A DNA stretch of 64,000 nt from Bilabrum cf. latius (lineage: Eukaryota). The stretch is taken from positions 434,001-498,000 of the forward strand of contig OZ237761.1 in NCBI GenBank assembly GCA_965178125.1, given 5' to 3'. Shown in pieces: positions 1 to 64,000 of this stretch. The notes under the pieces were generated by a model, which was not told the origin of the DNA, did not search any database, and saw only the letters and a list, made by a program, of their open reading frames with translations. The position numbers and the translations under genes were made by a program. The number at the start of each line of letters is the position of its first letter. Positions within the stretch are counted from its first letter, which is position 1.

Positions 1-2
1 GC

Positions 3-1913
3 ACTTGGGGCGCTGCCCACGGCGGCTCAGGGTCTAGTGCGACCGCATTTAGCCGCGGCAGCTGCGCTCGTAGCTTGGGCGGGATCGTGATACCTGAGTG
101 CAAAACCATGGGACAGAAGAAGGAGTTTCTGCAGCTTCGGTTTGGGCTGTCCGAAGACGATGCGCTAGAGGTTGTCTCCTGCGCTGGGTATGATATCCAT
201 GTTGCGGTGAAACTACTAGGGGATAAAGACGCCATGGAAACAATGGGCGTTACGGTTCCAGACTCCATGCGAATCAAGTCTCCAGAAGAGCTGGCACAGG
301 TGGATGCAGGCGAGAAGGTGCTTGAGCGGCTGACTCCCTTCGAGCATGATGCACTGGAATGGCTATGGGTTAGATGCACGCAGAAAATACCCGCGGCTGT
401 GATCACCCGATGGGCCTTCATAGCTGCCTACTCTCAGTTGGGCGGCGAGAGACTCTACGAGCTCATTAGCAACGACCAGGTCATCAACATCCTGGACGCG
501 TCCACCGCCGCACAGTCCTCTGCAGCTGCAAGTGCTGCCGGTGGGGCAGGATCCAAGGAGGAAGGGGTGCCAACAGCAGATAAGGCAAACGCAGCCAAGC
601 TAGCCGCTGTCCTCGCCGAGTAGTAGACGGAGCCATTCCTGACGACGTGGAACCCGCTCGCCAGCGTCTCTCTATTCTCGCTTCGGCTGCTTCGCAATGC
701 GAACAGGTGCTGCCTCAGCTGTGGGGTCCTTCTCCGTGTGAATGGTATGCGCCCTACTATGTGCGGTCGTTCGCAGTGTGCGCATCGGCACGCTTCGCTC
801 TGGCTTGGCAACGCGCTCCACAGCTTTGTGATGCGTCATCCACGGGTGATGGACTTGCTGATATCATTCTTCTATACCTTCGTACATTCCTGCCCAAGGG
901 TGCGAATGCCACTGCGGTGGCCGCACGGCTTGTCCAATAGGGGCCGGATGGGCGTGACGGCCGCCACGGAGGTCACCATCGGACCCGAGCCAAATGATGC
1001 AGACCTGGAAAAGCTCAAGAAGGCAATCGCAGCATGTCCCAGCGTGGACTCGATGCAACGGACGGGCAGGAGGGGCGGGACCGATGCACTCGAAGCAAGG
1101 CTGGACCGGATCAACACGCTGATCGTGCCGATCTTGCGGTCCCTGCTGGCCGAGACGCCGTCCTTCATTCACTGCATGAACGATGGCAGGGCGCCGAATC
1201 CGCTGAAAGGCACCAATGAGCACTGGTGCTTTGTGTTTCGCCAGGGCAATGCTGACAGGGAGGCGATCTTTCAGAACGATCGCCCTTCGAGGCCAAGCTT
1301 CTGGGCATGGCACGGATCGAGCTTCTTCAACTGGTGGGGCATTCTCAAGGGCGGCTTGCGGAACTTCAGCGGGACAAAGCTCATGTCTGCCGGTGCTGCA
1401 CTCGGTGCCGGCATATACTTCTCCGAGAACTGGTCCACCTCGACAGGCTATTCGCAGCCCGGGACTACCTGGCCCAAGACAGCACTCAAGCACTCGCCCG
1501 CCAAATTCCAGGAGCTGCGTCAGGCAGTCACGAAGCGAGCGCGTGAGCTCAAGGCAGCAGCCAGCGGTCCTCTTGGCCCAACGGATCTGGACAGGATCGA
1601 GCAGCAGGCCGAGGACGAAGTGATACCATCGGGAGGGGCCGATGTGCCTGTGTTTGCAGCGGCCATGTGCGAGCTACTGAGCAAGAAGGATGGGGACGGC
1701 AAGGGCTGCTACCAAAAGGGTGGTAACGCCGGTTAGGGGCATGGCGGCCACGTCCACGTGCTGCAGAAAGAGGACTGGTGCATGACTCGGTTCCTCATTG
1801 CGGGCGCGAGCAGCACCCGTGGTAGCCTCACCCTGGATCCAAAGACGGACAAGGAATTGCTTGGTCGGGTGACGAGTGGCATGGTGACGCGCGTGCACAA
1901 GACGATCGACTGA
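3..1913 (+). CDS. PARP6/8/16-like mono-ADP-ribosyltransferase (5' partial; in-frame TAG at 621, 624, 1734)
   Basis: ORFs 75..623 and 738..1736 share a frame and are separated only by TAGTAG. The frame is open from position 3 to TGA 1911-1913. Motifs: CCLSCG...RPTMCGRSQC (Zn-finger-like), WHGSSFFNWWGILKGGLRNFSGTKLMSAGAALGAGIYFS, and C-terminal VLQKEDWCMTRFLI, which lies after the TAG at 1734. Confidence 0.8.
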
Positions 1914-2013
1914 GCTACATGTTTACACGAAGTGCCGCACCGGCGTACCAAATTGCTTGCAAGGACATCCTGAAAACTCAGTTCAACTCGTAGGGCAAAT
2001 AGTTCAAGTGTAC

Positions 2014-5000
2014 TCAAAGGTAATTTCCTGTTTGCCCATCGCTACCCCCGGCTCCCTTGCCTTGGCCGTTGCCATCCACCGCACCTTCTTCTTCCTCCTC
2101 GTGCTCGTCCTCGTCATCCGGCGGCAGTCCCAGGGCCTCTCGCTCCGCCCGCACCTCCGCCGCCAGTTCTTCCGCGGCCTCTCTCTCCTCCCTCTCCAGC
2201 CTCAGGGCCTCTTCCTCTGCCTCGTCCTTGTCCTTGCCTTCCCAATCCACGCTCGACTCAGACCCGAAGCTGTAGCGACGTCTCGCTGCCAGTGGCGCGG
2301 GGAGGATCCCTAGCACAACCAGCTGGGTCTGCACCTTCTCAGCCAGCGGTCCCCCGTCCGAGTCGAAGCCAGCCAGCTTTGCGGCTTGATCCATCAGCTC
2401 GGCGGCGGTCATTTCGCCCTCTTCGGGCGGCTTGGACGCGCTACCACCAGCGGCCTGGTTGCTTGCCTTATCACCCGCCTGAGAATCATCGTCGCTGTCC
2501 TAGTCCTCGTCTCCATCCCCAGCTGCTCCGCTGGCAGCCGCTGGCTTGCTCAGCAGTTTGGCATCTTCTCTCTCCCTGTGCTCCTTCTCGGCCTTTAGCC
2601 TGAGCACGCCTTCCCTCATCGCGTGCATCTCGCGCACCTTGGCTCGCATCGCCTCCATCCCATCCTCTGGTCCGGCGCCCACGCCACCCTCCCCCGAAGG
2701 GTCGTCCAGCCCACCCGCCACCGCAATCGCGCCCTCGTGACTCGCAGACGGATCCAGCCCGCCTTGCACGTACCTCTACCTCTGAGCCTCCTCGGCCGCT
2801 GCAGCAGCCGCCGAAGTCCCGGCGATTCCGATCACCGCTGCTGGCTGATCTCTGGGCCCCGACACGGGCTCCCCGCGCACCCGCGCAGCTGCGAGCTCCT
2901 GCAACCGCTCCTCCTCAGCGCGCGCCTTGTCACTCGTCAGCAGATCCTCCAGCGCCACGTCGATGGCGCCATACTCCAGCTCGTCTGCGCCGGCCCGGCC
3001 CTTGGCACCGAAACCCCTGCCGCCTTCCTCGTCCTGCTGCTCGAAAAATCGCCTCCCCGTTGGATCCAGCACGAACTTCGTCTTCATAAGAGGTCTTACC
3101 CGCCTGGATATCTCGGTCGCCCTGTCGCGCAGCCTCTCCGCCTCCCCGCCCCAGCCCTCATGATCCTCGTCCTCATCACCATCCAGCATCGCGAGATCTG
3201 CATCCGCACTCATCACGCCTGTGCCGTGCTGCTGCTTGGACTTGCGCAGGTCGGGCGTGTCTTTCATGAGCCTGTACAGCAGCATCCTATCCTGGGCCTG
3301 CTTTCTGTCCACCCACTCCTTATAGTCCTCGCCTTGACCATCGTCCCCGTCCCACAACCTCCTCCAGCCGTGCCTGAAGGCCCGTCTCCTGTTCTTCTCA
3401 AATACGAGGTCCATCGCCCGGTCCCTCTGCTTCCTCTCCAGCTGCCGAAGCGCCGCAGACCGCCACTGCACCATGTTACGCGCGGCCCGCATCCTCTGCA
3501 CCTCCGCTTTGGAGTTCTTCCTGCGTAGACGGTCCTCTTCAAGCCGCAGGGCCACAGCCGCCTCCTCCATGTCAAGTTTGGTCTCATCGATCTGCACCTC
3601 GAGCTCGTGGTCGTATGCATTCGAAGCCTGCACCTTTCGATACGCCTCCTTTGTGGCCTTGTACGCTGCCGCTTTACCTGCAGCGGCAGTGCGCTTCGTC
3701 TCGACCAGCCGGACCTGCTCGCGCACCTCTGCCTGTGCCTGCGATGCCTTGAGGATGGCGCGGGCCCTGATTGCGTTGGCCCGCCTCTCGATCCTGCGCT
3801 TGCCCTGCGGCGTGACAGCCCAGGCCCTCATCAGGTGGATCATGCGCTGCGTCAGGGCGATGACCTCGCGCAGCTCTGTGCCTCGCCTGGATGCCTCCTC
3901 TCTCGTGAGCGTCCTCTGAGCGATCACGTAGCCAGGTCGCACGCAAGCCGGCTCGTGTCTGGCGGGCTTGTCAGGCAGCTCAACCACGCGCAGCCTTCGG
4001 CCGTCTGCGTCACGCCGTGGCCACCTGACGGCCTCGCCCACGTCGTCGTCCTCGCCGGGGTGCAAGCCGGTCCGAAGGGCATCCGCTGCTGCAAGCTGCG
4101 CGTTTCTGTTCTGCCTGCCGTTGGCGATCAGCTCGTTGGGGTCCCTAGCGCTGGACAACTTGGTGCGCAACGTACCCATCTGCAGCCGGGAATCCGGCGG
4201 AAGCTCTACAGGGCCGGCGTAGAGGTTGTCGTTACCGACGAGGGCGTCGCCGTCGGGGTCGATTACCCGCAACAGGGCACGACGACCCATGGCCGCGCCC
4301 TCGGGCTCGCAAGGAATCGCCGACCCGGCCTGACGCGCCTCTGCGTCATCGGCTGACGTCACCTTGCGCTCCATCGTGGACAAATTCGTCGCAAAGGAGG
4401 CAGACACGGGGTCTTCCAGTCGCTCCCCCACATCAGCTGCCACCCGAGCCGCCTCCTCCCTGGCGTGATCTCTGCGGAGCAACGCACTGCTGGTGGACTT
4501 CTTCTATGAATACCCGTCCTGCGCCCCTGCACCCTCTTCGCCTTTCTTCTTGGATTCCTTGGATTTCAGGGCCTCTTCTGCTTGCCTCACCTCGCGCTCT
4601 ACAACGGCTTGCTGCGGCAGCGGGCCCCACATAAGCCGTCCGCCCCGTTTGAGGGACCTATACGCAACCAGGTCCGAAACGTCGACGCCGGCCTTGCTGG
4701 CAAGCTCGGCACAAGGGCAGGTCGGGAAAGGAACGGCCGCTTCCGGTTCTGCCACCGGACCGTAAGGGCTCTAAAACCTCCGGAGCAACGCCTCCGTGTG
4801 CTCCCTGGGAAGGTCGAAGTTGTTCATGAACACGAGCGGGACGGCATGCCTCCGCTGTGACCTCCGCCTGGCTGCCTCCACCGGATGGTTCAGGTCAACC
4901 TTCTTTCCATTGCGGATGCGGATGTCCGGGGGACGGTAGTAGGGGTGCTTTTTGTTGAATTTCTCCCTTCGAGGCCGGCCACGGAGCGTGTACCGGTGCG

Positions 5001-8000
5001 GTGACTTGGTCGCAAGTTGGACGTGGTCGGCGTTCTCCGGATCCAGGTCATCTCCAGGCCCGGGACCCACGCCGGCATCCATTCGAGCCTCCCGCTCGAG
5101 GGCCATGGCCCGCTGCCTCTTCCTCCTCTGCTAGATGTCCACCGTTGCACCGACTGGCACGAGCTAGAGGAGGGCTGCTCGAGGCAGCTTGGGCCCGCCC
5201 TTGGCCTATTGCTCCTCTTTGGCGCGCCGCTCTGCGTCTCGCTGCCCCTGGCGCCGCAGCAAGCGTCGAGCTCGCCGTCGCTTTGCGGCCGTGATGGTAT
5301 CGCCAGCGTCTAGATCGTCTAGCCCATCGGTCACACCCGACAGCACCGTGAGCTGCCTCCCCATGCTGCCCCCACCATCCGAGGAGCTGTCGCCGCTCAG
5401 GTCACCGCCATCCACGTCGTTGTCGCTCTCGGATCCGCTCAGGTAGTAGTCGCCCGTGCCTGCGAGCACCATCTTTTCAACGTCTCCTGCCATGCGTCGG
5501 GCACCAGTCCCGGTCGCACCAGTACCTTCCACGTTGCTCTTGTCGCTTTTCTTATTTCGCCGGTGACGGCGCTTCCGACCACGGTCGGCTGCCTCGGGGT
5601 CCCGACCGCCCGCGTCGTCGGTTTTATTGCCAGAGTCAGCTGCACCGCCATCATCCTCGCCGCTCAAATCGTCCCCATCGTCCCAAATCTCCTCCACCTG
5701 CATGGCATCGCTTCCTTCCTCCCCCCCAGCGCCGTCAGGGTGGCGGTCGCGGTGGTACCGGGGTGAAGAAGCTCGCTATACGCCCTCCAGCTCACCCCTC
5801 TCGAGCAGAGCCAGCTCTTCGTCATCTTCATCATCGCTGAGATCCTCGGCATCCTCACGGGCGGCGGGTGCGTCCCACGCCAAGGCCGGTTCGATCTGCC
5901 ACATCCAGTCGCCGTCCCTGACCTCAGGCGCCTTAAGCCGCAGTTCAGCCACCTGTCTAGCGAGGTTGGGCCTGGGGTACTTGCCCTCCCTGGCTGCCGC
6001 CCGGATGTCGTCCAGTGTCATCGCACTCCCCTCGGCGATGTCTAGCAAGTCCGTCGAGGTCTGCTCGGCTAAGGTACCCGCTGCGAAGCGTACGCCCCCT
6101 GTCTTCTTTCCATCTGTCTGGTTGCCCGCGCCGCTAGAAGCACCGCCCTCGGCGGCCCCTATGCCCTTGTCCTCATCGGACGCATGGCCGTCCCTGATTG
6201 CAAGCCTGCTGCCGTTTCCTGTCCGTCTCGTCCCAGCTGCTGCATCCTCGTGCTCCAGCAACTGGCGAGCAGCTTCCTCTTCCGCTTCGCGCCGTTCTCT
6301 GGCAGCAGCCTCCCTCTCCTTCCTGGCCTTCTCTCGCTTGCCCTCCAGCCTTTCCTCCCAGTAAGAATCCTCTTCTTTGCCGAACACCGGCCATACAACC
6401 CGTCCTTCCACCTCCTGTTGCCGCAGACGAGCGGGCCCGCCCTTCACGAGCACCATGAGAGGGTACCGCTTGGGGTCTTGCCAGGCCCTAAGGTGCTCAA
6501 TGGGCAAACCACGGGGCACCATCTGCGAGCCGAAGACGCCGTCCAGATCCACTCCGTAGCACGGGATCATCTCCTCGTCTTCCCCCCACGGCCGCTTCAC
6601 GTCAGCGGTGATGAACGAGTCGGAGATGAGACTCTGCTGGAAGGCCACATCGATTAAGTCCTGGAACATCATGAGCTGTGACTGCATCCAGGCAAACCTG
6701 CGTCGGTCTACCAGCGCCTGCACAAAGTCGTGGAAGCTGTCCTTGCTTGCTACAACTCCGTAGAAATCTCCGTTCACCATGACATCTGCAGCGGCGTCGA
6801 TGGCAACGAGGTCCTCTGGAAGAAGCACCCTTCTCATCGCACCGCGAGCGACGATGTGCTGCCTCCTGCCGTAGAAGAGATAACCCGCTTCCTGCGACCC
6901 ATCTTTGGCCATCTGCCTCTGCCTGTTGGCAGCGTCCTGGACCGCCTTCTCGAGTGCGGCGCGCTCCACTCGCCCGCCCATGCCGAGCGCAATGCTCTCC
7001 CAGACGAGTTTCTCGCTCGCCGGCAAGCCTCGACCGTCCTTACCGCCAAGGCCGAGCCCACGGTCGGCCCAACCTGCCACAGGGGTGAGGTTCCTGGGGT
7101 CAATCTCTAGGCCGACCTGCTCTAGAACCGACTGCACATCGTGCAGCCGCTGCAGCCTTTCCTAGGAATAGTCCCTCATTACCTGCACACCGGCGTCCAG
7201 CAGTCGCTACGGGGGTGATCGCAGCCTGGGGTTGTGGTGCAGCTTGATTTCTCGAAGGGCTGGCATCCGCAGGAGAAGGTCTCCGAGGTCAGGGAGGTCG
7301 TTGCCCTGCAGCCACAGGCTCTCCAGCGCGTTAGACAGCGGGCTGTCCCCGTGGAGCGACCGCGGCAGCCTGCGAATACGGTTATAGGCGATTCGCAGCT
7401 GCTTCAACGAAGACAACAGTCCGAGGGAGTCGGGCAGGCCGCATCCATCGGGGGACTGACCAAGCGCGCATCGATTCGCATCCAGGCGAGCTAGGCTTCC
7501 ACACAGTGCCAGCGACTCGGGCAGTGCCTCAAGTTTCGGGTTGCTGTCCAACGTGAGGCGCTTCAGCGAGACCATCGCACCCATGCCTAGTGGCAGGTTC
7601 TCTAGCTGATTGCCTGAAAGGTCAAGCTGCTGCAAGTCTGGCAGCGCGTGCGGAAACGCGGCAGGCAGCTCTAGTAACCTGTTATGGGAGAGATCCATGA
7701 CCTCTAACTTCTGCAGGCACAATACACCTGGTGGAAATCCGACGATCTGATTCCTGGCGAGGTCGAGCACCTTCATGTGCTCGAGGTCCCGCAGCACCAC
7801 CTGGGGCAGCTGCCTCAGCTTGTTGCCACGGAGCGATAGGGCCTGCAACTTCGTCAGCTGCCGCAGGGCGCCAGGCACCTGCGTCATGCCGTTGAAGCCC
7901 AGCCGCAGCTCCTGCAGGCCCTTGTACTTGAAGATTGCGCCCTTGACGTGCGCTGGGACGGCATCGTATGATTCAAAGTACCGGTTGGCGTTGACGGCCC

Positions 8001-11000
8001 TCACATCGCCTGATCGTGCAGCCTCCACCATCTGAGTCAGCTGAGCGTGCATGGCCCCCTCAGAGGATACCAGCTCACCATCAGTGCCACCCCGCACCAG
8101 CTGCAGCTCAGGTGGCGCACCTCGCTGGTAAATGTGCTGAGCCTGCCTGCATGCCCATCGGATGCCCTCCGGGCCCCTTCTTACCGCATCGTCCGGCGGA
8201 AACTGCAGGGGGTTGCCGTGCAAGGCAATGCTCTTGAGCGCCTTGAGCCGGGCGAAAGAGAGAGGTAGCCGCTCGATCGCATTGTTCCCTATCCGGAGCC
8301 GAATGAGGGAAGAGAGATCGCCCATGCTTGGGGGCAGGTCCTGCAGTCGATTTCCCTCCAAATTAATGGCCTTCAGGCTCCTGCATGACCCAATGGAAGC
8401 TGGTACCGACTGGACATAGTTGTGCTGGAGGCTGAGTTCTTCCAGCGTGGTGCATTCACCCACGGTCTCGGGGATGGAACCCAGGATATTGTGGTCGGCG
8501 AGCACTCGCTTGAGCTTGGGGCACCTAAACAGCGAGGCGGGGAGGTGCGCCAGCCGGTTATTCCTCACGTTGAGCACCTCCAGGTTGACCAGCTGCTCCC
8601 ACCGGTCCGCTGATGGCGGCATGTGCACGGACACCAACCCACGATGCCTGTGCACGAACAGCAGCGCCCTTGCGGGCTGCCTCAGGCCCATGTTCTCTGC
8701 GACGCCGCCCAAAGGAGCAGTCTCTCCTGCTGCAGCAGGCATCAAACCTGTTCCCTCGCCAGGTAGCACCTGGCCGAGCGTATCGTCGAGCGTGGCACCA
8801 CCTGCAGCTGTCCTTGCAGCACTTGCACCCCTCGATGCATCCGTGTCTCTCTGGATATCCCGAGTGCGCAGCCCAAACACCACGGCAGGGTCCTGCTTGA
8901 TCAGCTGCCCACCACCACCCCTTCGCTACCCGAAGCCCGCACCTGTGCTTGCATGCGTCGCATCATCCCCACCGTATTGCACCCCACCGGCAGTGGCAGA
9001 CTGCTCACCACCTTCCTGCCAATGCCCTCGGTAGTACGTTGACCCGTCGTCATCGTACCCACCTTGCTCTGCCAATGCCGCCTGCTGCCCGCCATTGTAG
9101 CCCTGGCCCTACCCAGAGACCTCAGTTCCTGCCACGGACTGGTACTCGCTGTTGTAGGCAAACACCCCAGCACCCGGAGTGGAAGCCCCCATCGGCGTCG
9201 ATGCCCATGCCTGCGTGCCTGCCCCAGCCATGGGCGTCTGCTGCATGGGCCCGCCTCCCGACCAGTAGGACGCCTGGTCCGCGTCACTGTACCCTGTGCC
9301 ACCCTCGCTGGCACCCCACCGTGCCGTCACCTCAAGCTTCGGAGCTCCATCACCACCACCGATGTTGCCACCGCCGGCGGACGGGGACAGAGGCACCAGC
9401 TGCATGGCGCCACTTTGACCGCCATTGCCGCCCCCTGCTGCGTAGTCCGTCTGAGCGTCCCAGCTGGACCCCGCACCGTGCGTTAGATCTGCGCCCGGTG
9501 ACAACATACTCCCACCACCGGTGCCATTCCGTCCAGCACCCGACGCCACCACCAGTTGCCCGCCCGCACTGCCATCCGTCAAATCGCGTGTGCTGCCGCC
9601 AGCGCCGTGCAGAGTAGAAACCGTGCCTCCGGCTTGCCACGTCGTGCGCTGGGAGCGCAACGAGTCCTTCTCGTCAGGGAACACAACCGATTCCGAGTCC
9701 TGTCCATGCACGCTGGGGCCGGACGCGGGCCCTTTGACTGCCCCTGGCATCGAGGTGCTGAGCTTGGTCCCGCCCGCAACTGCTGCTGCTCCCGCCATCA
9801 TGGTGTGCACGGGTGGCAGCTCAGCCCAAGGGTCCAAGCCGTACCCTCCTGCGTCATCACCGGCGACTTCCACCGCGGCGTGAGCAGCATCGCCCGTGGC
9901 CAGCGTAAGATCCCAGCCCGGGCCCAGATCCACGTCAGCCGCGCCCATGTGCCTTAGGCCCGAGTTGAAGGGGTCCATCTCGTCCATTGCGGGCTCTTCC
10001 CGACGCACCATGCTCGGCTGGTGCAGCCCTTGCAGGCCTGTAGGACCGGTCGCATGGACTCCATCGGGGGCACCCCACCCTCCCTTTGGTGACCGCTCCG
10101 CGACTGCTGGTGGTGGAACACCATACACTGCTTCCCAGACCAGCACCCCTTCTTTCTCCGCCTCCTGCTTGCGTCTCTTGAGATCCTCGCTCTCTTCGTC
10201 TTGCCATCCTTCTGGTGCCTCCCACTGGCTCTCGCCCGAGGCCTCGTTGAAGTAGTAATACAGGCCGTTCTCCTCGTCCCAGCCCCGCTGCCAGGCCTGA
10301 TGGTACCTCTGCCACTCTTCTGCAGCAGCATCTGCTTCGTCATGCTCTTGTTCCGCAGCTGATGCAGCGGCTACACGACGAGCCAGAGCATCTGCAGCCT
10401 CCTGCTGCTTCTCCACCATCGCGGCTGCTTCCGCCCGAAGTGAAAGCGAGCCATGCGACGCACGTGCGGCTTGCAGTTCGGCCCCGGAAGCATGCTTGTC
10501 TTCAGGACCTTCTCGCGCACTGGCAGTGTGCACCGACGGGGCGAGTTCCTTCAGGATGCCCTGCCGCTGCAGGGACTCGTGCGCTCCCCTTACTTCATCA
10601 GCCTCATCGTCGAATCCCTCTGGCTTGTGCCGCTACATGGCACCTGTGCGCTTGTGGAAGTAGGCGACCTAGCCCGTCCTTGGGTCCTCCACGATCTTCC
10701 AGTCCATGCGGGTTTTCTGTCGCCGCCGGGCACGGGCTCTGGTAGCTTTGTCACCAGTGGTGCTCGCCTACTTTGGCTCGTCTGTTGTGGAGCCCTGGCT
10801 CTGCCCAGCAACAGCTACTCCCGCGTCTGGGCCTGCATTTGCTGCTGGCGTTGGCTACCCAGCCGCAGATCCTGAGCTCTTCAAGTCAGCCGCAGCCTAG
10901 GTAGCCTCGCTCTCAGGACCCCCACCCACATCGTTCGGAGCTGTGAAATTCGCCCCTGTCCAGTCAAGCCCGCGCTTTGCGTCCGATTCGCTGCTGCTGG

Positions 11001-13455: not shown

Positions 13456-13567
13456 GAAAAATTCTCGAGTTGCCGGATACAATTGCACGCAACTATGCAT
13501 TTAAAAATCAGAACTGCGACAAAGTGCAATCGCAACCACGCAGACCTTCTGTACGAACCCAATCGTT

Positions 13568-15412: not shown

Positions 15413-15585
15413 GCTGTTTGGCAGTCTGGGGCAAGCATGCAAAATAGCTGCGTGATTCCAATCCGGAGTTGATATGGTCGAGTGACGTCGCGACGTTGGC
15501 TCCAGAACAACCGGATTCGGACTACGAAAGCAGCCAGGCCGCCGCTTGGTTTTACAAGTACTTTGCAAATTTTATCCAGAGAAGT

Positions 15586-21921: not shown

Positions 21922-22152
21922 TCAAGCCTTTTCGTTGTCTGAGGCCACCACGTCGCCCTTCGCGTCCTTCTGTACCGCAATTGCTTGACTAGCTCGACCA
22001 TTCTGCACTGGATCTTTGGTTGGAATGCTGGGCTTGGAAGCCTGTCCCTTCGGCTGTGGTCGAACATATTTCTCCCACCCTGCCCATGCGAGCCCAACTG
22101 CCAAACCCAATGCAACTAGCTACGACGCCTCTCCGACGGTCCGGGCACGCAT
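21922..22152 (-). CDS. Possible small single-TM protein (~76 aa; TAG at 22120)
   Basis: MRARTVGEAS*LVALGLAVGLAWAGWEKYVRP... ending TGA, with one hydrophobic segment. No recognised family. Confidence 0.35.
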
Positions 22153-31393: not shown

Positions 31394-31515
31394 GCCGAAG
31401 TGCTTCGGTGTGGACGCTTGGGTTCAACAAGTTACGTGCATTTTTTGAGAGGTCACGATGAATGGCAGCTCACGCCACTATCGTTCTGACAATGTCATAG
31501 AAACCAGCAGAAGAT

Positions 31516-37211: not shown

Positions 37212-37496
37212 ATTCCTTACAATCTGGCCTCTTTGCTACCGTGCGTGCAACCTTGTCACGCGAACTATGTATTTCATGCTGTGAGATGGCATTAAACAGT
37301 GAATCGAATGATAGTCGCCGCGAAATCGTGCGCACTGCTGAGCGGGGAATTTTGTGCTGTTTGCGGAACCAGCAGCCTGAGCTCGCGGCGCCGCCACCGC
37401 GGCATTATTCTGATGGAAAACCTCTTGCAACGATCAAATCCTGTAGCGCAACGCGGCCGAACGAGCGAAGCGTGGCTCCACTTCACCTCCCAAGAA

Positions 37497-51926: not shown

Positions 51927-54900
51927 TCACCAGCTCCCTTCTACCTCCCACCCCGACTGATTAGGCTTCTCGCCACCTCCCCCACCACGCTTGCTCGGTG
52001 TCCTCCTCATCCACGGCGGCAGCTTTTTGCCCTTCTTTTTGTTCTTTCCCTGGCTTCCGTGCTTCCCACCACCGCCTTTCTTTTCATTCTTCTTGTTTTG
52101 CCTGGACTTGCTCTTGTCGAAGAGCTGCGAGGCCATGTCAACCGCGTCGCCCCGTGTGGACCAGTCTGTAGGCCGGGTGCCGCTCGCGTCGAACGGCAGC
52201 ATCGGCGGGCGGATCGTCACGTCCGCCTTTTCCCCGCTGTGAACTCGGAAGGAAAATCCATCGACAGCTCTCCTCCACAGCGTTGTTCCCTCGATTTCGA
52301 TCGGAGCCACGCTCGCCCAGCCTACCCCCGCCACGGACACGTCGAAGAGCGCGCGCCGCTGCCTCCTCTGCCGCCTCGATCGGACCCGCGCGGGACTTCC
52401 GCGAAGCAGCTCCTGCGCATGATCATCCCCCTCCTGCGCAGCCTTCAGTCTGTGGTCCAGGTCTTTGGGAGAAACGGTCTGCTGCAGCTGCATGGGGCCA
52501 GCGGAGGGGACCAACAGAAGGTCGCTGGGGCCCAGCCCGGCGGGTGGACCACCACGCTGCTATTTGCCTTGGCTTGCTCCCCGCGCGACCGCCGCCGCGG
52601 AGGTTCTTGCTTCTCGTGCGTCACTTGCATTAAGTTCTTGCACGCTGGCATCGCCGTCTGATCCCGATCTATCTGCGTCTGACCAGTCCTCCTCCTCGTA
52701 CTGCGACCCCCAGTCGTCCTGTGGGTGTGGGTGTGGCTGTGAGTGAGTTTCAGGCTGCGGGCCGGTTTGAAGATCGTCCTCTAAAGCAAGGTCGTTCGGG
52801 TCAGCCCTCTTGTCAGACAAGTAGGATGGCACTTCTTGCGCCCCGACAGCTGAACGCTGCGCACCGGGCAAAGACCCGTCACCTGAATACCGAAGGACGT
52901 GCCTGTCAAAGACACCGTCAGCTGCATCGGTTCTCGAGATGTGGACCGGCACGCCTCCATACACGGTCACCAGCACGCTCGAGCCGTCGGGATGATCAAC
53001 ATCGATGCGGGTCATTCCACCGAGAAATAAAGATTTCCCAGCCGGCACTCGGAAATGACGGGGCCGCGTGCGCTTGGCCGGCACCGCTCGCAGCAACATC
53101 CTCCTGGCTTCTGTTTGTCCGAGCAGAATGGGCGCTTTCGATGCAACCTGTTTAGAAATAGAGCTAGCTCGTGGATTTGTGGCCTGCGACTCGTCGATTG
53201 GATGCAGCTCGCTTTGCCTCCACTCCACCGCCTTGTCCACCTGCTCCACTCTCGGCTAGCCCAGCGCAAGGGATCGCAGCAGCCCCGCCCTCGGCGTGTC
53301 CTCGCCCAGCCCTGGGCAATCGATTAGCCTGCCGTCCTTCTGCGGGCGCTGCCCTGTTTTGTCCTTGCGCTTGTCGGCATCCTTCTTCCCGATGTCCGAT
53401 CCGGGCAGCCCCACAGCCACCATGCCAAGCGTGGTGCCGGGCGCTGCGGACGTCGTCAGTGGTACCGGCATGGCAAGTCTAGCCCACGGCATTGCCCAGC
53501 GCATGCTTCCGTGGGTCAGTTCGGAGCTGCCTAGACGCTGGGCCGGGGTCACAGCAGGAAGTACCGCAGACGACTGCGCAACCCCGCCGGACCCGGACCC
53601 TCCATCCGGGTCGGCAGACAGACCCGCCCTTGCTTCCAGCCTGCCCAGCGCAGGGTCCTAGCCTCTTCCTGCCGACAGCCAGGCGGGTCCCCTGTTCCCT
53701 GGTCCTACCCGCCCGCTCGCATCTGCGACCATATGACGGGGGACTGGCGCACCTGGATCCTCTGGGACAGCAGATCGAGCCATCGATGCGGCTTGTTCCC
53801 TTAGAGCAAGCGCCTCAGAGGCCGCGCCAGCTGCCGATACGGAGTTGCCGTCCTTGCCCTGGGCCTTGTTTCCTGCTCCAAGCTGAGGCACGTCATCAAT
53901 TTCAAATGACACGGGGCTCTCCGATGCCTGCCACGCCTCCCGGTCTGCCTTGGCCTGAAATCGGCTGCTCGAATCGCCTCGGCCAGGTGGACCGCTGAAG
54001 CCTGCAGACACCGTGGCATCCTCCCATGCAGCAGCGGCCACTCGATTGATGAGCGTGCTCTTACCAACGTTGACAGACCCGATGACGAACACGTCTCTCC
54101 CAAATCTCCTCGACTGGATCCACTGCGCCACGTCCGATGCGCCCTCTCCGGTGCGGGCCGAGCAGAACAGCACGTCCCAAACGCTGACCTCCTCCCGGGC
54201 GCGACCATCGTGCGATGAATCTGATACACGTGATGAGGGCTGCTTGGAAGCTGCCACTGATACACTGCTGTCTTCCCAGCCCTCCTGGCTGGTGCTAGGA
54301 GACCCGTCCGTGTCGCGACCTGCCTCCGCCCGGCGAGCATGCCAGCTCTTGGCCACAGGGGCATCGTTGTCGTCCATGGCGGCCGCGGGATCCTTCACGG
54401 GGCTGGACGGGGTGTCTACGTTTCTAGCCGGCTTTCCAACGCGGATGCCAAGTTCTCGAAGCCGCGCCCGCACCCAGTCCCGGAGGCGAGAGAAGGACGT
54501 GCCTGGCGGGAGCAAGTCGCACTTGTTGACCACCACGACAACGTCTCTGCCATGACCGAGCAACTCAGGCAAGTTGCGCACGGTGGTTCCTTCTAAATCC
54601 ATTGCGTCAATTACTAGCATTGCCATCGCTCGGCTTCGCGGACGCGCACGGATGTGCTCAATCATGCCATCAACATCTGCTTCCACTGGGTCAACGCGCC
54701 CGTAGTGCTTCATCGCGAAACACCGCGCGCATACAACTGGTGCTGATGAATGCTAGGACCCAGATTGGCCTGATCCTTTGCTTTTACCACTCCCACCGCC
54801 TGTGGTCGCTCTATTCAACACATCGGGGTTGATGTAACCAACAGCAGCAGGGGCTGTAGTCTGCAAAGGGACGCCACAGCCCCTACAACGAGGGCCTTTT

Positions 54901-55100
54901 TGCTTAGTTACATGCGTAGGCTCCCTTGTTTCATTCGACAGATGACTTCCAATCGTTTCTCCCGCTCCCCGGGCCATCGGCACCGTAGAAGAACTGCGGC
55001 GAGATAGCAACACGCTTCCTGAACCCCCAACGCGTAGTACATGCTGAATGGTCCTACCAAAGCCTAGAAACAACTAGCGTTTTGTTATTGCAACTCGCAT
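51927..55100 (-). CDS. NOA1: NOA1/YqeH-like circularly permuted GTPase, probably mitochondrial (TAG at 55074, 54753, 53658, 53256, 52560)
   Basis: CRGCG...PAAVGY and CARC Zn-binding motifs, then G4 NKCD, G5 SARTG, G1 GSVNVGKST, G2 PGTT, G3 DCPG in permuted order. Also SLFLGGMTRID and DVSVAGVGW; ends TGA. Confidence 0.85.
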
Positions 55101-55651
55101 GAACCTCATGGAAGTCCAATTATACCATATTGAAGCCTATGCAGAATGAACCATGTGACGAAAGTAACTTGAACCCGCTTCTGCCTACACATAATGAATT
55201 GATTCATCTTGCTCTTGTGAAATGTAATGGAAGTTGATATCATTGATTGTATCTCTGAGTTTGAGGCGGTAAGTAGCTCATTGTAGCCGTGTGCGTCCGT
55301 ATCACAGTGTGTTGCAATTATGTAGGCTATCATTTGGTGCACATAGTCTCGCAGGAAGGATCTGGCTGGTCATTTCACGCTTTTGTGCGCCATTGGAACT
55401 TGAAACTTCTGCATGATGTGCACCTTCTGCTGGATGGCCCAATATTTTCGAGATCCGAGCAGGTCTCGAATGGCTTTCACTTCAGACGAATGAGGCTGTA
55501 CCAGCAGTGGTATAAGGCTTGTCTAAATGTGTTCATATCGGCTTCATCGATTCGCATGCGGATCGCGTCGTTCTATTGCATGTACATGGTGCTCGTGACG
55601 CAGCCAGGCTTGGAGCAGGCCAGATCCCCAGTCCCTGCGCGATGCAGCACC

Positions 55652-57892
55652 ATGGCATGGGAAGCTCTCACAGGGCTTGCCAGGGCCGTTTTGGCGGCAT
55701 TCGCCGAGCACAATACTGTTAGTCGAGCAAAGCAACCGCCTGGCCACAGCTGGTTGCTCGACTACGTGAGAGCACTCCGCCGCTCGGTGCACGCAGGGCT
55801 GCTCGTGCCATCGTGCTCGGATGGGTGCGCGGGCTCGATCGCAAGCATGGCGGCTCTGCTCGAGAGCGTGGAGCCCGGGCTGTCAGTGCCAGCGGCAGTA
55901 ACGTGCGCCGAAAGGCCATCCGCAATTGCGGTAGATGACTTCAGGCTGGCACAGGCACAGGCACAGTCACAGTCACAGCCATAGTCTCTGTCGCATGGCG
56001 GCGGCAAGTCCTCAAGCGGCCGGAATACAGCTGCAGGCGGCCCAATGCTAAGGGGTTGCCCTATTGACCTGACACCAGCTGCCTCGTAGACATGGCTTAA
56101 CTTGCAGCGCCGATTCGATAGGGCTATGCCAGCCGTCGGCGCATTACTTGGCTTGAACTAGCTGGCTGTTGCAGCAGTACCTACTGCTTCGACTGGGAGT
56201 TCTCCCCCCAGCCTTGAACGGTATGGTAGCAGCTCAAGTGGCGAACGGTATGGTAGCAGCTCAAGTGGCAAAACATCCGCCACGGCTGACCAAATAGCTG
56301 CTGCTGAGGACTCGCTTGGCAGCATTGGTAGAGCTCCAGCAGGTACAGAAAGAACACAGGCTTCCTCTGGACACCACCGGTCTAGCGATGCAGATTCTGG
56401 AGAGGACGAGTCCTGGCACGAGTCCGAAGAGGACGACCTGTCGGACTCGTCTATCGGTACTGATGAGGGGGACGAGGAGGAGGATGCCGAAAGCAGCTCA
56501 ACCTTGCGAGCTGCTGGAGATGGTTCCGTGCCAACGAGGACCCAAGCACGGGGCAGGCGAGCACGCGCGCGTGCACGGGTGGCCTCTCTTGCTCTTGCTC
56601 TGCTCACAGGAGTGCCCAGGGGAAGGCAGTCAGTGCGCGACGCAGTATCGTCGTCCTTGCGTGAGCGCCTAGGGCACGATGAGGTTCATGGTACTTTTCT
56701 GCAGGCAGCAGTGCAAAGGGCCCTGCGCCGGCACCAGGCCCGGCGAAAATGCTCGCTTGGTGCTGTGCTGGGCAACATCCCTCGGCAATCGCATGAGTAG
56801 CGCCATAACACGTAGTCGGCGGGGTAGCAAGCAAATGCTCAAAGCCGACGAACATTTGTTCCAGAGTAGTTCCTCGCCGTGCATACAGACACGCCACTTG
56901 ACGCCTTCGATCGAAGTACTCGATTCGATACCGAGCGCAGTATGGGCACCGCGGGCCCTGCTGTTGCCATGGACGGATCCAGGTATGACCCAGCGGGTGA
57001 TGGCGAGCTCACAGATCGCCTGCGACATGCGGCTCGCAGAGCGCTGGTTCGTCGCAATCAGGAGAAGAAGCGGGGGCATTCCGGAGATATGCTGGGCCGA
57101 GCGGTGCTGGAGCCACTAGGTGGCGCATACGCTCGACTCGAGACAGGCGGCGCCGGGATGCGCATGGCTCGAGTGGGAGAGCAGCCATCAGATCTGGTGC
57201 GAGGGCTGGCACTTGCGAGGCGCCGCGACGAGGACGAGGACGGAGACGCATCTCCCAGCTCCGATTGGTCGTCCAGCAGCTCGGACGAGGGTACCGATTC
57301 GGCTCGCGGCAATGCCCAGGCAAGTGAGGCCCTGAAACGGAGCCCAGCCTAGCGGGATGGTGCAACAGCTGTGGAGATGAATGGCGGTGGCAGGAGTGAA
57401 AGCATGTCAAGCTCAGAAGACGAAGCTATCCTGGCGGATGGTGGGAGGCGTCGATGGGAGGATCTACCGCTCGTGTCATCGAGCGGATAGCTGTAGCGGC
57501 CAAGCGCAGGGGCTGATGATCGCGGAGTTGCTGAAGGACAGCCCCCTCCCATTCACCGCGGGTCAAGAGCAAGCGGTGGCACCCATGCAGCATCGCCCGC
57601 GTTGTCCGGTTCACCAGCTGCCGTATCGATGGCTAATGAGTCGGGGAATCAAGATGAGCATGGGCTACAGCTTGACGAGCACGAGCTTTCAGATGCCAGA
57701 GGCGACTTGGAGGACGAGGCGGAGAGGTGGTCTTCAACTGTGCGGATTGTGTACGGCCCGCCGAACATCGGTGCGGCTGCGCACAGGTCCCAAGAGTCGC
57801 AAGGCTCCACTTCGAGCACAACAATGGACATAGCGTTGCGGATGTGGAGGGAGCAAGCTCGGCTAGCTGAGATCGCAGCGATGCACTCGTAA
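55652..57892 (+). CDS. Hypothetical protein (~746 aa, acidic/low complexity; ~10 in-frame TAG)
   Basis: ORFs 55289.., 56504.., 56879.. and 57602.. share a frame broken only by TAG; ends TAA. Start uncertain. Confidence 0.6.
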
Positions 57893-58143: not shown

Positions 58144-61100
58144 TTAATCTGACCCGCTGCTTTCACCATCGTCCCCTGCATCTGCACCACCACTCGTTGC
58201 AGGCACCAATTCGCCCAGGTACTTCTTGCCATGCTTCCTCGCCAGCTCATTGCGAACGGCAGTTGCAGCTGCACCGTGCTGCGCGAGCGACTAGAACCCC
58301 CTGCCCTATGCTCGAGGAACCCCGCCGTCAGCCGAATCGCTTGGCCTCACGCATCCCTGTACCGCGGCATGAAGCGCTGCACGAGCACCAGGCCCGAGAC
58401 CTGCTGCCGCTGCGTCCAACAGCCCACTCGCTTTAAGCCCATCCCCACCTGCAGCCAGTGATGCCGCGTCGGTCGAGCCGCCTGCACCGGCCCCGCCGAG
58501 GTGCATCATCATGCCTAGCAGCGCGCCGCAGAAGTCGTGGCCCATGCACTCGAGCTGCCTGGAGTCAAAGTGCCCCAGGGCACGCTCTCCCTGGGTCATG
58601 CCCGCAAACGACGCCTCGATCGTGTACGAAAAAGCCAGTGGCAGGTCCCTTGCCATGGCGACACGGGCACAGTTGGCCTTGGCACGATTGACCTTAAAGC
58701 TGCACGAGCCGAACGCGAAGTCGGTTGTTGTTCTACTCAATAGGAAGGGAAACAGGCGACCAGGAGTGCCGTGCGCCCATCGGTCATCGCAGCCGAACAT
58801 AAAGACGTTGCGGCGCCTTGAGTGGCCGTGAAAGTCACAGAACAGCAGAGGCCCACGATTTTGCCTGCGCACAGACAGCAGCATGTGCCTCAGATGCCAG
58901 ATGGTGGGCGCTTGCCGCCTGGTTGGAGTGGTCCAGTGTCTGTTCAGGTCGAATCCAGCCATATTCACGCGGTGATGCCCCGAGATGACGCCATCAGGGT
59001 TGAGGAAAGGGACGACTTTGAAGACGGCAAGCCTCCTGAGTGCCTGCGCCTGCTCGCAGCTCGAGGTAAGGAAATCGACCGCCCCGCGCATCATCCACGA
59101 TGCGTTCGTCTCGCCCGGATGCACGCGCGCGCTCAGCACCACCACCGGCCTGGCATCAAGGGGCACCCACGGAACGCCGCTAACGTCAAAGGCAGCCGGC
59201 GCGATCTCGGTATCTGTGATTGTGAGCAGCGGGAGCGGGTTGCCCAGAATGGAGTGGCATAGCACCGACCTGCTCATGTACCTGGAATGGAACAAGGCGC
59301 CCACAGGCAGCAGTCGGGAGTCTCCAGCACCTTCTGGGGAGGCATCATCGCCTGGTCCTACTTGTACCGTAGAGGTCGGGAGGCTGGAGGAAATCGTCTG
59401 AACTGGTTCTCCGGTCCGCTGCAGCTTGAGAGCCATGGCTTTGGCAGCTCTTGGACTGGACACCCGAAGTGTCGGTGCCGCATCATCGAGGGTCCCGTCC
59501 GGCAGGGGGGAAGCAGACGGCGGTGGCCGTCTATCAGATGCAGCAGCGAAAGGCTCATGCGGGCGGATGCACTGCTCTGCGGCATCCAGGGGAGCCTCCA
59601 CCAAAGGCACCGTCCCGTCCTCCTCGAGCCCCTCAAGCCGCAGCGCGCGGTGTTCCCAGCGACGTACATCCCGAGCCATGTCAGAGTACGTGTAGGGGTA
59701 GCAGTAGCACATCCAGAAGCGGCGGGTACCTGGGGGCAGGCGCAGCGTCCATACCTCTGTCCACAGCTGCTAGGTGTCAGGGTGGGGCTGTCCGCTGCTG
59801 GGGGTATCATGTTTGACTGTGCCTTTGGCGTCCTCTCCGGCCTTAGACGACTTGCCCGGTGCATGCTGGAGGGCGGCCTTGATGTCAGCAACGGCCTGTT
59901 TCGCGCGAGCGACAGCCTCTCTGGCTGCTTCGGGTGAGGGTGCTTGGTAAGGATCTAGCACATCACCAAGCTGCGGGACTGCACCGGTGTCGCTCACGTC
60001 GATTTTTGATTCTCTGGCAGCCTATGATTTGCCTCCAGCGGGCGCAGCATTGTCTTCTTGACCCGCTGCCGGCTCGTGCGGCGTCGCTCCGGGAGTGGGC
60101 AGCTGAGACCTCATCCAGGGACTGTCCAGCTCTGGTGCCTGGCCTACTTGCCGCTTCTGCTTGCGCATGTGGCTTCGGAAATACGCCACATCGATCCCTA
60201 GCCTCCGCCACCCGTCGCCAGCGGGAGGATCTCGCCAGAGGATGGACGTGCTCGGCGCGTCGTGTGCGTCGGGATCCGCAGCACCGACTGTCGGTGGAAC
60301 CTCTCCGCCTTGCAACGCGGACTGCAGCGCCGACACGCAACCCTGGGCCAGCTACGCCCCGTGAGACCTCCAACACCTCTCTGGCAGCGGTGTCGATTCG
60401 CCCGTGGTGCCTTCCACGTACACGACTGGTCGCATGCCGTGGTTATAGCTGGAATCTGCCTTTTCCAGGTTAAGGGCAGCAAGGGTTACCTCGATTGGCT
60501 GGTGCATTGCACGCAGAGTACGCGGATCGGACGGGCCGTCGGACTCCTTGCCAGCTGATTTGTCCGCGCCTTCTTTCACGACGTCGCACTGGAAGTTGAA
60601 CCACTAGGTATGACCCCCGGTGTTGGTGTCGGGGTCCAGCAAAAGAGCGTACTGCGATGGACCGACCCTCACGGCCGCCCTCAGGTTGCCAGTCTCGTAC
60701 CTTGACTCGAACTCCAGCCGCACGTCGTGCGAGTTTTGAGGCAGCTGCGGAGTGCTCTTGCTGCCCCCGGGGGCTCCCTATCGGCCGGGCGGGGTGATAG
60801 CTTCGAGGGCAATGGCTCGCCTGGTCGTTTCCGACGAGACGGCAACGGCAGCGTGCGGATTGTCACCGCCTTTCGCGAAAGCGGATCCGGTACTCCTGAC
60901 TGGGCTAGCGTCCTCGAGCACGTCTGTACTCGCCTCGTGGGTCTTCGGATCGATAGCAACCGTATGGCCGGAACCGACGAACTGGCGGAGGAGCACATCA
61001 GCCAGGAGTTCGCCCCTCTTGACAGCCCCAGAGCTGCCAGGTCCGATTCCATCCTGCCCCTCGCGCTCAGTGCCATCTGCACCCTGTGGCCGGGGCGGAG

Positions 61101-64000
61101 CACCCAGCTCCCTGCGCCTGTCCGACCGCACGTCCGGACCCAACACCGCGGAGGCGATCCGCCACGCCTCTTCCGGATCATATCGTGCCAGTGTGTAGTA
61201 GGCGAGGGGCAGGGCGGGAGGCACACGCGGTATCGCCGGTCCCAGTCGCTGCTGCCTCGAGCGAGGGCTTGAGGCCTGGTGGATGGGATCCAGCAGCCAC
61301 CTTGGCACCTCCCCGTGCTTCGACGACGGGGGTGGCGCGAGGTCTAGGTGGTGCTCCGAGTGGGTATCTAGCGCAAGGAGGTGCACGCGTCTGTCGGCGC
61401 GCGTGCTGGCAGGCTCGAGGGCACGATCCGCCGACATGGGCGTGAGAGGCACCCGACCTGCAGCGCCTGGTCCTGGTGCTGGATGCGCGACACCTGTCCA
61501 CTCCGCCCTCATTGCGTCCCTTGCCCAGTCGCCCGAGAGACCAACCAGGGCTGCTGCTTGGCTCACACAATTGGCGAAGAAGCGCCGAGCCACTCGAGCC
61601 CTCGTGGCTCTGTTGGCTGGCGGCATCGCTTCCATTGCCACTGGGGGTGGGAGCGCGTGGCACGCGGTCGGGAGGGCAGAGCTTGGGCTGTACCAGGGAT
61701 GCGGGTGAGATATGCCCCATTCAGACACGTAGGCGTGGGGAGGTACCCGGCGAGGACCGGTGAGATTGGCGCGAGTAGTCTCGTCCAGCAGATGGACTCC
61801 GCACTGCTTTAGCATTTCCTTGGCAGACTGCCATGCAGGAAGCCAGGTCCTGCGTTGTTCCACGCCGTCTCCAATATCATCGGCTTGCTTTTGACCCTGT
61901 AAAGCGGCTGCGTTCCCCCGACTTGCGGCTCCTCTTGGCTTGCTGCCGATTCGTATTGCTTCCTGCTGCAGTTCCGGCCACCAGTGCGGCATGCCGACCC
62001 AGTCGGCTCCGCCAGCAAATGCGCCTTGCACGTCCTCCATAGCCTCGATTCGCTCCAGCACCTCCGTCCACTCCTCATCATTGGCTCGGGCCTGAACAGG
62101 GGCAGAGCCGAAGGCCCGGGGGTCTACGAGTTTCGGAGGCGAGCGAATCGCGTCGGGGAGCAGGCATTGGCAGGAGGTGCGGAGGGCGGACAGCGGCCCA
62201 GTACGGTCGCCCGGCTCAGCAGATCGACGCAGCGATGCACCAGCATCAGCTGCAAGCGAATCTCCACCCGTGGAACCGCCATCGCTGACCATGGGATGAG
62301 CAGTTGCCAAAGCCGCAGGCACCGAATCACCGGATCCACCCGAGCTGCCTCTACCCCTAGAGTGCGAAAACGACATGGATGCATCGTCCGGCAGGGGCTA
62401 CAGCCGCATGCTACCCGACGGAGCCCGCCTTCTCCGGTGAGCGGGCTTGCCTGCCGCTGGCCCGTGGGAGCCCTCGTCTGACGTGGAAGTGCCGACGGAG
62501 GAGCTAGAGACACCGGGTGACGAGACGCACGCCCCGAGACCGAGACTCGGCGAGGCTGCTTCCGCATCGCCGCGGGCTTGCCGCAGCTCAACGGATTCCT
62601 TTCTGCCTAGCCGTCGCACTGCGGCAGCGGTGGTCGTACCTTCCTGCATGGAGGGCGATGACGAAACACCTGCCGACTGCTGCGAGCCAGCAGATCCCGA
62701 GGAGACAGGTCTGCCACTCGTGAACCCGCTGCCAAGCCTAGGCTCAAGCTTGTCGTGGCGTGCAGGGCCCATGAGATCACGGAGTACGCCAGGACCGCGC
62801 CTCTCAGCATCGGCGTTTGCGCGAATCGGCCCGGCGTTGGAACCCAGGGCTCGAAGCGTGCTACGCTTCGACCTTGGCGAGGGCATCTGCTTTGCGACCG
62901 CAGGTGCCGGGCCCTTGGGGGGGCGCAGTCCGCGGCTCTCCTTGCTAGCCGTTGCGCTGCGACCGATGCTTAGTGGGAGCCCCCTGCGTGATCCCCGGGG
63001 ACTCGTCGGCGCAGACCTAGCAATGGGGCTCGAGGCAGGGCCAGAGCCGCTGCTCTTTACGGAGGAGTCTTCCCCGCTGGATGGTCTGCTCGCGGTCTTG
63101 CCGTCCCTTTGTCCCTGCCGCAGAGAGGCGGGCAGCCTTATGCGAGCACGAGCAGCTGCACGCCCAGCGCCGGACTGTGGGCTGCTGTCGGCAGATTTGG
63201 CACCGCTCGCAGGAGCACCACTCCTGATCCGGATCCGCTGGCCCAGGCCAGGCCGCCTGCCTCCAGGGTGTGCCTGGTTGAGAGGCGGAGAAGGGCGACC
63301 GGTCGGTCCAGCAATGCCGACATTGGAATGGTTGGCTTTGGGGGCTTCTGTGGCCGCCCCTGGCACCACCCCGCGGGCTCGCCTCGCGACCACGCGCCTC
63401 GCCCTCCTACCCGTCCTCTGCTCCGCGACAGAGGCGCTGTCGTCGCTGTCGTCAGAGGCGGCGCTCCCGCCTGCCATCGAGTCCGCGTCGTGATCGGACT
63501 GGTCTCTCCCAAGCCGCACTAGCACAGACTCTGCCTCCATGGCTGAGTCGGTCTCACCTGCTTCCGACTCCCCCCGGATGCCAACCAGATCCGGATCGAT
63601 TGGGGGTGAGGGTCCCGCAGCAGATGCCCCCCCTAGTGCAGGGGTTGCAGCTGCCTCGCGATCGCCACCGTCAGAATCGCCGTCATCTGCCATGTCCAAC
63701 GCGCCGTCTGCATCCTCTGCCGCACTCCTCGCCAGGCTGCTGAGGCTACTCTCTCCGCCCAGGCTACCTCCATCGTCACTGCCAGCCTCAACGTCCTCCC
63801 CATCCAGGGGGGGGGCGTCTGCATCTTCACCCGGCTCAGCCGCTTCGCCCTCAAGATCGATTGACTCACCGTCGTTGGTGTCGCCCGCGATAACGACCTC
63901 CTCGCCCTCCTGATCGACGGTGCCAGCGCCTGCCCCTGCCCCAGCACCGGCCTGATCGTCACCACTCGCGCCCTGGGGGCCACCTCCTATCGTTGCCGCA
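58144..64000 (-). CDS. Cytosolic carboxypeptidase (CCP/AGBL, M14D tubulin deglutamylase), 5' partial
   Basis: LEFESRYETGNL, GHT*WFNF, NLEKADSSYNHGMRP, CYCYPYTYSD, SARVHPGETNASW, NPDGVISGHHR, DLNRHW, DFHGHS, SYTIEAS. One frame open from the window end to TAA 58144 except for TAGs (62398, 60778, 60604, 60352, 60022, 59770, 58306, 58291). Confidence 0.9.

Follow-up and report, generated by a model that had tools for sequence, protein, structure and literature searches.

The window analysed here is a stretch of 64,000 nucleotides of contig OZ237761.1 (assembly GCA_965178125.1, labelled Bilabrum cf. latius; positions 434,001 to 498,000 of the forward strand), and this report deals with the meaning of the codon TAG in its protein-coding genes. 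From the comparisons described below, we consider it very probable that UAG is an ordinary glutamine codon here and no longer a stop signal, with UGA and UAA still acting as terminators. The GC content of the 64-kb window is 55–66% and the genome is overall described as a 62% GC genome. We built 18 gene models comprising 18,541 codons from Pfam matches and open reading frames (ORFs), which were bounded by TAA or TGA. The Pfam scan of the long frames yielded C2, WW, LRR, DHHC, DSPc, PARP, cNMP-binding, and cytosolic carboxypeptidase domains, and the further families found were type-B carboxylesterase, MATE, PDX2/SNO, sulfatase, CarboxypepD_reg, NAPE-PLD-like metallo-beta-lactamase, TruA, and NOA1/YqeH-like GTPase. 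The spacers between the genes are short and all models save those of PDX2 and the sulfatase look intronless. The PDX2 gene (SNO glutaminase, PF01174, 17634..18732 of the plus strand, stop TGA) consists of two exons (17634–17915 and 18022–18732) separated by one GT-AG intron (GTAAGT...CAG, 17916–18021), the excision of which joins the exons in phase. The sulfatase gene (PF00884 and PF14707, 18975..20980 of the minus strand, start approximate, stop TAA) has three exons and two introns (~19785–19903 and ~20105–20298, bounds approximate) with GTGAG donors (GTGAGC, GTGAGT) and CAG acceptors. An earlier reading made from the letters of this stretch alone (the sequence-only reading) had stated that its genes contain no frameshifts. 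This statement has to be corrected, since these introns change the frame. Because of the domain repertoire and the spliceosomal GT-AG introns, the window DNA can be classified as eukaryotic, as that reading had proposed.

When TAG was read as a sense codon, the longest ORF of the window grew from 920 to 3,828 amino acids and five ORFs of at least 1,000 amino acids were obtained. The TAG-sense ORFs of 3,828, 2,565, 1,951, and 1,841 amino acids hold 24, 19, 8, and 5 TAG codons, respectively, and each of them is closed by TGA or TAA. We quantified this effect by adding up the residues of all ORFs with 500 or more amino acids. The standard code gave 4,805 such residues, and the number was 21,535 when TAG, 6,020 when TAA, and 16,087 when TGA was taken as sense. 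Reading TAA as sense hardly lengthened the ORFs. Five sequences simulated from the window with a second-order Markov model served as control, and in these random sequences the corresponding counts were 0–1,946 for TAG-sense and 3,718–8,558 for TGA-sense. With TAG as sense, none of these composition-matched sequences approached the window, and TAG is thus the clear outlier. In the 18 models, 103 in-frame TAG codons were counted; the five other frames contain 113–132, so that TAG is no rarer in frame. At least one in-frame TAG is present in 17 of the 18 models, in line with the claim of the sequence-only reading that most genes here are affected, and the exception is an ORF of 363 codons (37497..38588, minus strand). 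In-frame TAA and TGA codons were both absent (0 each, compared with 26–78 TAA and 133–364 TGA, together 172–442 per frame, in the other frames), but these zeros are partly circular because the models themselves were bounded by TAA and TGA. The evidence that is not circular comes from the ORF-length control and from a metagenomic locus described below, and both back the earlier statement that TAG, never TAA or TGA, occurs in frame. The ratio of CAA to CAG is 163:561, and if TAA tracked this ratio about 30 in-frame TAA codons would be predicted beside the 103 TAG codons, compared with the 0 seen (counts that are again partly circular). TAG makes up about 12% of the glutamine codons. The ratio of TAG to CAG (103:561 = 0.18) is about half of that of TTG to CTG (201:598 = 0.34), and this fits with TAG being a disfavoured glutamine codon or one that is short of its equilibrium.

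The amino acid that corresponds to TAG was determined from alignments with homologous proteins. The type-B carboxylesterase gene (PF00135, E 2.7e-74, 13568..15412 of the plus strand) carries three TAG codons, one of which (14219..14221) specifies the residue before the nucleophile serine in the nucleophile-elbow motif GxSSGG. At this position, 23 of the 24 aligned homologues have glutamine and one has glutamate; these sequences are 24 of 120 matches listed, P0013, P0021, and P0023 having been dropped from the first 27 for low coverage. The gene of a cytosolic carboxypeptidase (M14, PF00246, 6,602 homologues, 58144..63999 of the minus strand, 5′ end open, stop TAA) carries eight TAG codons. Among the best 150 of its 6,602 matches, 149 align at the TAG in the motif HTxWF (60604..60606), and here we found glutamine in 145, arginine in two, glutamate in one, and histidine in one. 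The TruA-type pseudouridine synthase gene (PF01416, 39654..41144 of the plus strand, three TAG, stop TAA) has a TAG (39714..39716) that is aligned with the second glutamine of the motif G-x-Q-x-Q in E. coli and T. thermophilus TruA, which means glutamine in two of two distinct solved sequences. Similarly, the gene of the NAPE-PLD-like metallo-beta-lactamase (PF12706; human NAPE-PLD 4qn9, E 1.2e-51; 35349..37292 of the minus strand, four TAG, stop TGA) involves a TAG in the motif PAxH (36201..36203), where the solved human enzyme has glutamine (PSQH). The statement that the family consensus is glutamine at several TAG sites is supported by the two deep alignment columns of the esterase and the carboxypeptidase, and the solved TruA and NAPE-PLD homologues agree with it. 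A crude sum of the BLOSUM62 support over 20 sites gave 68.4 for glutamine, 45.4 for glutamate, and 17.0 for lysine, so that glutamine ranks first. The majority residue at these 20 sites was glutamine in 12, glutamate in five, and lysine, leucine, and proline in one each. Leucine was observed at TAG at two distantly aligned sites only, and serine at none of the well-aligned sites. It had also been claimed that TAG falls inside conserved domains. This applies to the esterase, the carboxypeptidase, the MATE protein, PDX2, TruA, and the NAPE-PLD-like protein; in the NOA1/YqeH-like GTPase gene (51927..55154 of the minus strand, weak matches to PF01926 and PF03193, stop TGA) all six TAG codons lie in variable stretches.

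Exchange between TAG and CAG was seen in an environmental relative. The 73%-identical fragment P0139 was used to scan metagenomes, which yielded 77 loci. One of these, L001 (3,343 bp, 59% GC), has a reading frame that stays open through all of its 1,114 codons and holds eight TAG, no TAA, and no TGA. The longest standard-code ORF of this locus has 394 codons. L001 shares 62% identity over 1,059 positions with the window carboxypeptidase, and in conserved context the TAG codons of the window at codons 1132, 1216, and 1410 are CAG in L001. These three sites include that of the motif HTxWF, where the close relative P0140 has glutamine. Codon 1411, in turn, is CAG in the window but TAG in L001. 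The TAG-CAG pair of the window (codons 1410–1411, 59767..59772) thus stands against CAG-TAG at the same two codons, and the two organisms read TxQLW and TQxLW, respectively. The other TAG sites lie in poorly aligned stretches, where the counterparts are P, V, P, S, S, G, R, and K. The TAG-sense pattern was found in none of the other 76 loci of the 77 fetched. L028 and L029 looked suggestive by their ORF length; L029, which alone was inspected, was rejected as its coding sequence changes frame as in an intron-bearing gene.

More closely related sequences were available as standard-code gene calls (P0121, P0126–P0129, P0140) from contigs that are 89–98% identical to the window. Across the TAG sites of the window these relatives have glutamine at eight, glutamate at four, and proline at one position (13 sites; 2,590 aligned positions with 99 differences). 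Parts of the LRR/WW-domain ORF of the window (2014..13500 of the minus strand, 3,828 codons, 24 TAG, stop TGA) are covered by P0126–P0129 at 89–98% identity. TAG codon 2098 of this gene (7207..7209) corresponds to glutamine and TAG codon 2113 (7162..7164) to glutamate in the 98% relative P0126, and TAG codon 2910 (4771..4773) is the exact end of the ORF of P0128. In the MATE transporter gene (PF01554, E 2.2e-38, 15286..17502 of the plus strand, four TAG after the first ATG used, stop TAA), a TAG in a transmembrane helix (site 433, 16582..16584) corresponds to glutamine in the 98% relative P0121, and the ORF of P0121 ends at a further TAG (17158..17160), beyond which the similarity to plant MATE proteins runs on. 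The protein search with MATE yielded five matches at E ≤ 1e-10, one of which was the 98% relative, and no deep column was obtained. Altogether, two ORFs of the relatives end exactly at a TAG of the window, three end at window codons CAA, CAG, and CAG, and one ends at GGG. Thus, the relatives also carry in-frame stops at shared or glutamine-codon positions. Public protein collections already contain such broken fragments. These comparisons show that the environmental relative and several near-identical strains have the trait, too. The extension to the whole genome, which the sequence-only reading had made, is an extrapolation from 64 kb and the fragments of relatives.

Besides the partial circularity mentioned above, several observations weigh against a simple glutamine assignment. 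In distant cholinesterases, glutamate is found at the position of the esterase TAG. The TAG of PDX2 in the motif FGSQAxSFE (18190..18192) corresponds to E, E, and D in three bacterial PdxT structures, and the sulfatase TAG in the motif DWxRT (19563..19565) to leucine in human arylsulfatase B (ARSB). For MATE, site 433 is L, G, and L in three solved MATE proteins, though it is glutamine in the 98% relative, and site 625 is K, Q, and K in solved MATEs. The carboxypeptidase TAG sites 1074, 1216, and 1410 showed no consensus among 19, 25, and 11 aligned homologues, respectively. Finally, the share of residues other than glutamine at the TAG sites of the close relatives (four glutamates and one proline of 13) exceeds that at ordinary glutamine codons, of which 99 of 103 are kept and four differ (two of them to glutamate), but this comparison is biased because a TAG of the relative breaks its own ORF, so that shared TAG codons are invisible. 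The pattern fits with TAG codons that are young and were born from CAG by synonymous and from GAG by conservative change. The excess of glutamate at the positions of the relatives that match TAG suggests that TAG may still be arising from CAG and GAG. If this is true, the lineage would show, still in progress, how a codon that has just become free spreads through a proteome.

The only serious alternative amino acid is glutamate. UAG is translated as glutamate in some ciliates and UAR in Blastocrithidia, and such an assignment for the window would be in keeping with glutamate at four of the 13 TAG sites in the near-identical relatives, with the acidic residues (E, E, D) of PdxT at the PDX2 site, with the glutamate of cholinesterases, and with the second rank of glutamate in the summed score. 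However, the two deep columns contain one glutamate in 24 and one in 149 sequences against 23 and 145 glutamines, and where the alignment is good, CAG or glutamine is found in L001 and the close relatives. Moreover, where ORFs of the relatives stop at window codons other than TAG, these are glutamine codons in three of four cases and never GAG or GAA. If TAG stood for glutamate, the eight glutamine observations in the relatives would all be non-synonymous and would outnumber the synonymous changes. Thus, we regard a glutamate codon as improbable. The same low probability is assigned to a dual, context-dependent UAG, which would be sense inside genes and a terminator at some gene ends. Dual stop/sense codes are found in Condylostoma and in karyorelict ciliates, and in several genes of the window TAG precedes the assumed TGA or TAA stop by a few to some tens of codons (8 in the DHHC gene, 49 in the carboxypeptidase gene). 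In contrast, a TGA or TAA is reached in all 18 models, and further TGA and TAA codons then follow densely, the next one lying within 7–59 codons downstream in 17 of the 18. TGA closes 12 models and TAA six, and these two are the only terminators seen. For the esterase, the TGA stands exactly at the conserved C-terminus, directly after ..WWCN, and the similarity of MATE to plant proteins extends beyond its last-but-one TAG. There is no gene that needs TAG as stop.

Two further explanations leave the standard code intact. Editing of U to C would turn TAG into CAG in the messenger RNA, and since the product would likewise be glutamine, protein comparisons are blind to the difference. However, an editing process that rescues stop codons should also tolerate TAA (edited to CAA) and TGA (edited to CGA), neither of which occurs in the 18,541 codons of the models or in the 1,114 codons of L001. 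To our knowledge, U-to-C editing at such a scale is restricted to plant organelles and does not concern nuclear genes. Taken together, we consider editing very improbable. Alternatively, the TAG codons might not be read at all, if the genes were pseudogenes, if the sequence or its assembly were faulty, or if TAG lay in short in-frame introns, and introns are indeed present in two genes. Of all explanations this is the one we regard as least probable, its chance being close to negligible. Of the three stop codons, just TAG is concerned, in 17 of 18 unrelated genes with otherwise intact frames, and no gap is seen at the TAG between the conserved residues of GxSSGG and HTxWF, which excludes introns at these sites. 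Independent assemblies of the relatives break the ORFs at the same sites, the unrelated metagenome contig L001 shows the same pattern, and the stretch, or at least half of its sampled words, is present in sequencing runs of three studies.

Glutamine therefore remains the preferred assignment; it agrees with the earlier proposal and draws on the deep columns, the exchange of TAG and CAG with relatives, and the BLOSUM62 sum. By analogy with other lineages that changed UAG only (PMC5304391), a tRNA-Gln with the anticodon CUA would decode UAG and would be unable to pair with UAA. By the same analogy (PMC5304391), the release factor eRF1 would be expected to have lost or weakened its recognition of UAG. 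Within the 64-kb window there was neither a tRNA gene nor an Rfam match.

The window is a further case of a known code variant, in which UAG alone is changed to glutamine. NCBI translation table 15 reads TAG as glutamine; with TAG as Q and with TAA and TGA as stops, the window gives intact proteins, and the table says nothing on lineage or mechanism. In the fornicate Iotanema spirale, nuclear UAG encodes glutamine and UAA and UGA are stops (Panek et al., 2017, PMC5304391). As in Iotanema, only UAG is reassigned here, the amino acid is glutamine, UAA is still a terminator, and a tRNA-Gln(CUA) and a change of eRF1 are predicted. In contrast, Iotanema is an anaerobic metamonad and the organism of the window is probably a stramenopile; moreover, the Iotanema case rests on transcriptomes and on a substitution in the GTS motif of eRF1, whereas the evidence for the present case is genomic and comparative. 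The same change, UAG only to glutamine, has been described for two phyllopharyngean lineages of ciliates and for Protocruzia tuzeti (PMC11687900). These ciliates share the code variant, several independent origins, and a UAA that was not reassigned together with UAG; unlike these alveolates, the window has its closest named homologues among stramenopiles. UAR codes for glutamine (NCBI table 6 type) in many ciliates, hexamitid diplomonads, oxymonads, ulvophytes, and Amoeboaphelidium, and a tRNA-Gln(CUA) is documented for some UAR = Gln organisms (PMC5304391, PMC11687900). In these codes, too, a stop codon was turned into glutamine, but TAA is absent in frame from the 18,541 window codons and from the 1,114 codons of L001 and ends six of the 18 genes. 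Other changes of UAG only have led to leucine in the rhizarian exLh and to serine in Scotinosphaera (PMC5304391, PMC11687900), where UAG no longer shares the meaning of UAA, as in the window, but the amino acid differs.

A review-style list of UAG-only changes from December 2024 includes Iotanema, Protocruzia, some phyllopharyngean ciliates, a rhizarian, and Scotinosphaera (PMC11687900). Full-text literature searches and a term search of a 2024 stramenopile review, with supplements and subscription-only papers outside their scope, yielded no description of a changed nuclear code for stramenopiles. Our data might describe the first nuclear code change in Stramenopiles, an independent and fairly recent change of UAG to glutamine in a GC-rich lineage close to the bicosoecids, of which several strains or species have been sequenced and which has one or more environmental relatives. 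We put this forward as a tentative proposal, the chances of which we judge to be slightly less than even. A description may already be in preparation, since the underlying sequencing runs date from 2025. Nuclear code changes are rare and those in which UAG was changed and UAA kept as stop are rarer still. A further independent case from another supergroup-level lineage with 62% GC would add a data point on the co-evolution of eRF1 and tRNA-Gln, and it would bear on base composition as a driver of stop-codon capture. For practical work, annotation, orthology assignment, and contamination screens of these assemblies need TAG to be read as Q; the warning that standard-code annotation shatters the genes is borne out by the 17 of 18 that are broken here.

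The window represents nuclear DNA of a protist that is rich in GC and poor in introns and that is probably a heterotrophic stramenopile close to the bicosoecids. For the esterase, the best named match was Cafeteria roenbergensis (45% identity), the next ones being Bicosoecida sp. CB-2014, Phalansterium, and Salpingoeca. For MATE, the best named matches were the oomycetes Phytophthora and Albugo (24–25% identity). The best named matches of these two genes tentatively point to a placement as stramenopile near bicosoecids; rRNA and marker genes are absent from the window. Overall, the closest homologue of the esterase was the metagenomic protein P0001 with 58% identity. Its standard-code ORF of 574 amino acids is full-length and has no internal stop; about three TAG codons would be expected in it at the density of the window. 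The source of P0001 may not belong to the recoded clade, or this gene may simply be free of TAG. For the carboxypeptidase, the top full-length matches (P0138 and P0145) are labelled as firefly proteins, namely KAF5308101.1 of Abscondita terminalis (2,168 amino acids, 38%) and KAF5302931.1 of Lamprigera yunnana (36%).

The remaining gene models follow the same pattern. At the left end of the window, a PARP-domain gene with an open 5′ end (3..1913, plus strand; PF00644, E 7.4e-10) contains three TAG and stops with TGA. The plus strand further carries the DHHC palmitoyltransferase gene (23914..25449; PF01529, E 5.3e-31; four TAG after the ATG, stop TGA), a gene with five C2 domains (25886..31393; PF00168, E 1e-65; five TAG in the stop-to-stop frame 25868–31390 and four after the ATG at 25886, stop TGA), and a dual-specificity phosphatase gene (31462..33270; PF00782; one TAG, stop TGA). 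The least certain model, a possible gene with a sub-threshold SNAPC1 match (55490..57892), is located on the same strand and has 10 TAG and a TAA stop. On the minus strand we found a gene with a CarboxypepD_reg-like domain (33648..34943; PF13620; one TAG, stop TGA), a cNMP-binding-domain gene of 2,513 codons (41278..48819; PF00027; 18 TAG after the ATG, stop TGA), and a gene of a membrane protein with no Pfam family (48999..51914; four TAG, stop TAA). The region at ~21000–23800 has the lowest GC content of the window (0.553 for 20001–24000) and its ORFs are without Pfam match; it may be intergenic or home to fast-evolving genes.

The five-C2-domain gene (25868–31393, plus strand) is rich in repeats. 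A 30-bp unit, repeated 19.3 times at 27480–28059, encodes EEAAAKKAA-type repeats, and (CCAGCA)38 at 30761–30988 encodes an Ala-Pro run. In addition, a C2 module of ~183 amino acids is present in near-identical copies, with ORFs on the minus strand recurring at a period of 549 bp. One TAG lies close to the first C2 repeat; because the linker cannot be aligned, its comparison with the remaining copies of the repeat was uninformative. The ORF of 363 codons on the minus strand (37497..38588), which is the sole model without in-frame TAG, has a GC3 of 0.85, belongs to no Pfam family, and overlaps a longer, less biased ORF of the plus strand. About two TAG codons would be expected in it by chance, so that their number of zero is not significant; it may be a highly expressed gene that avoids TAG.

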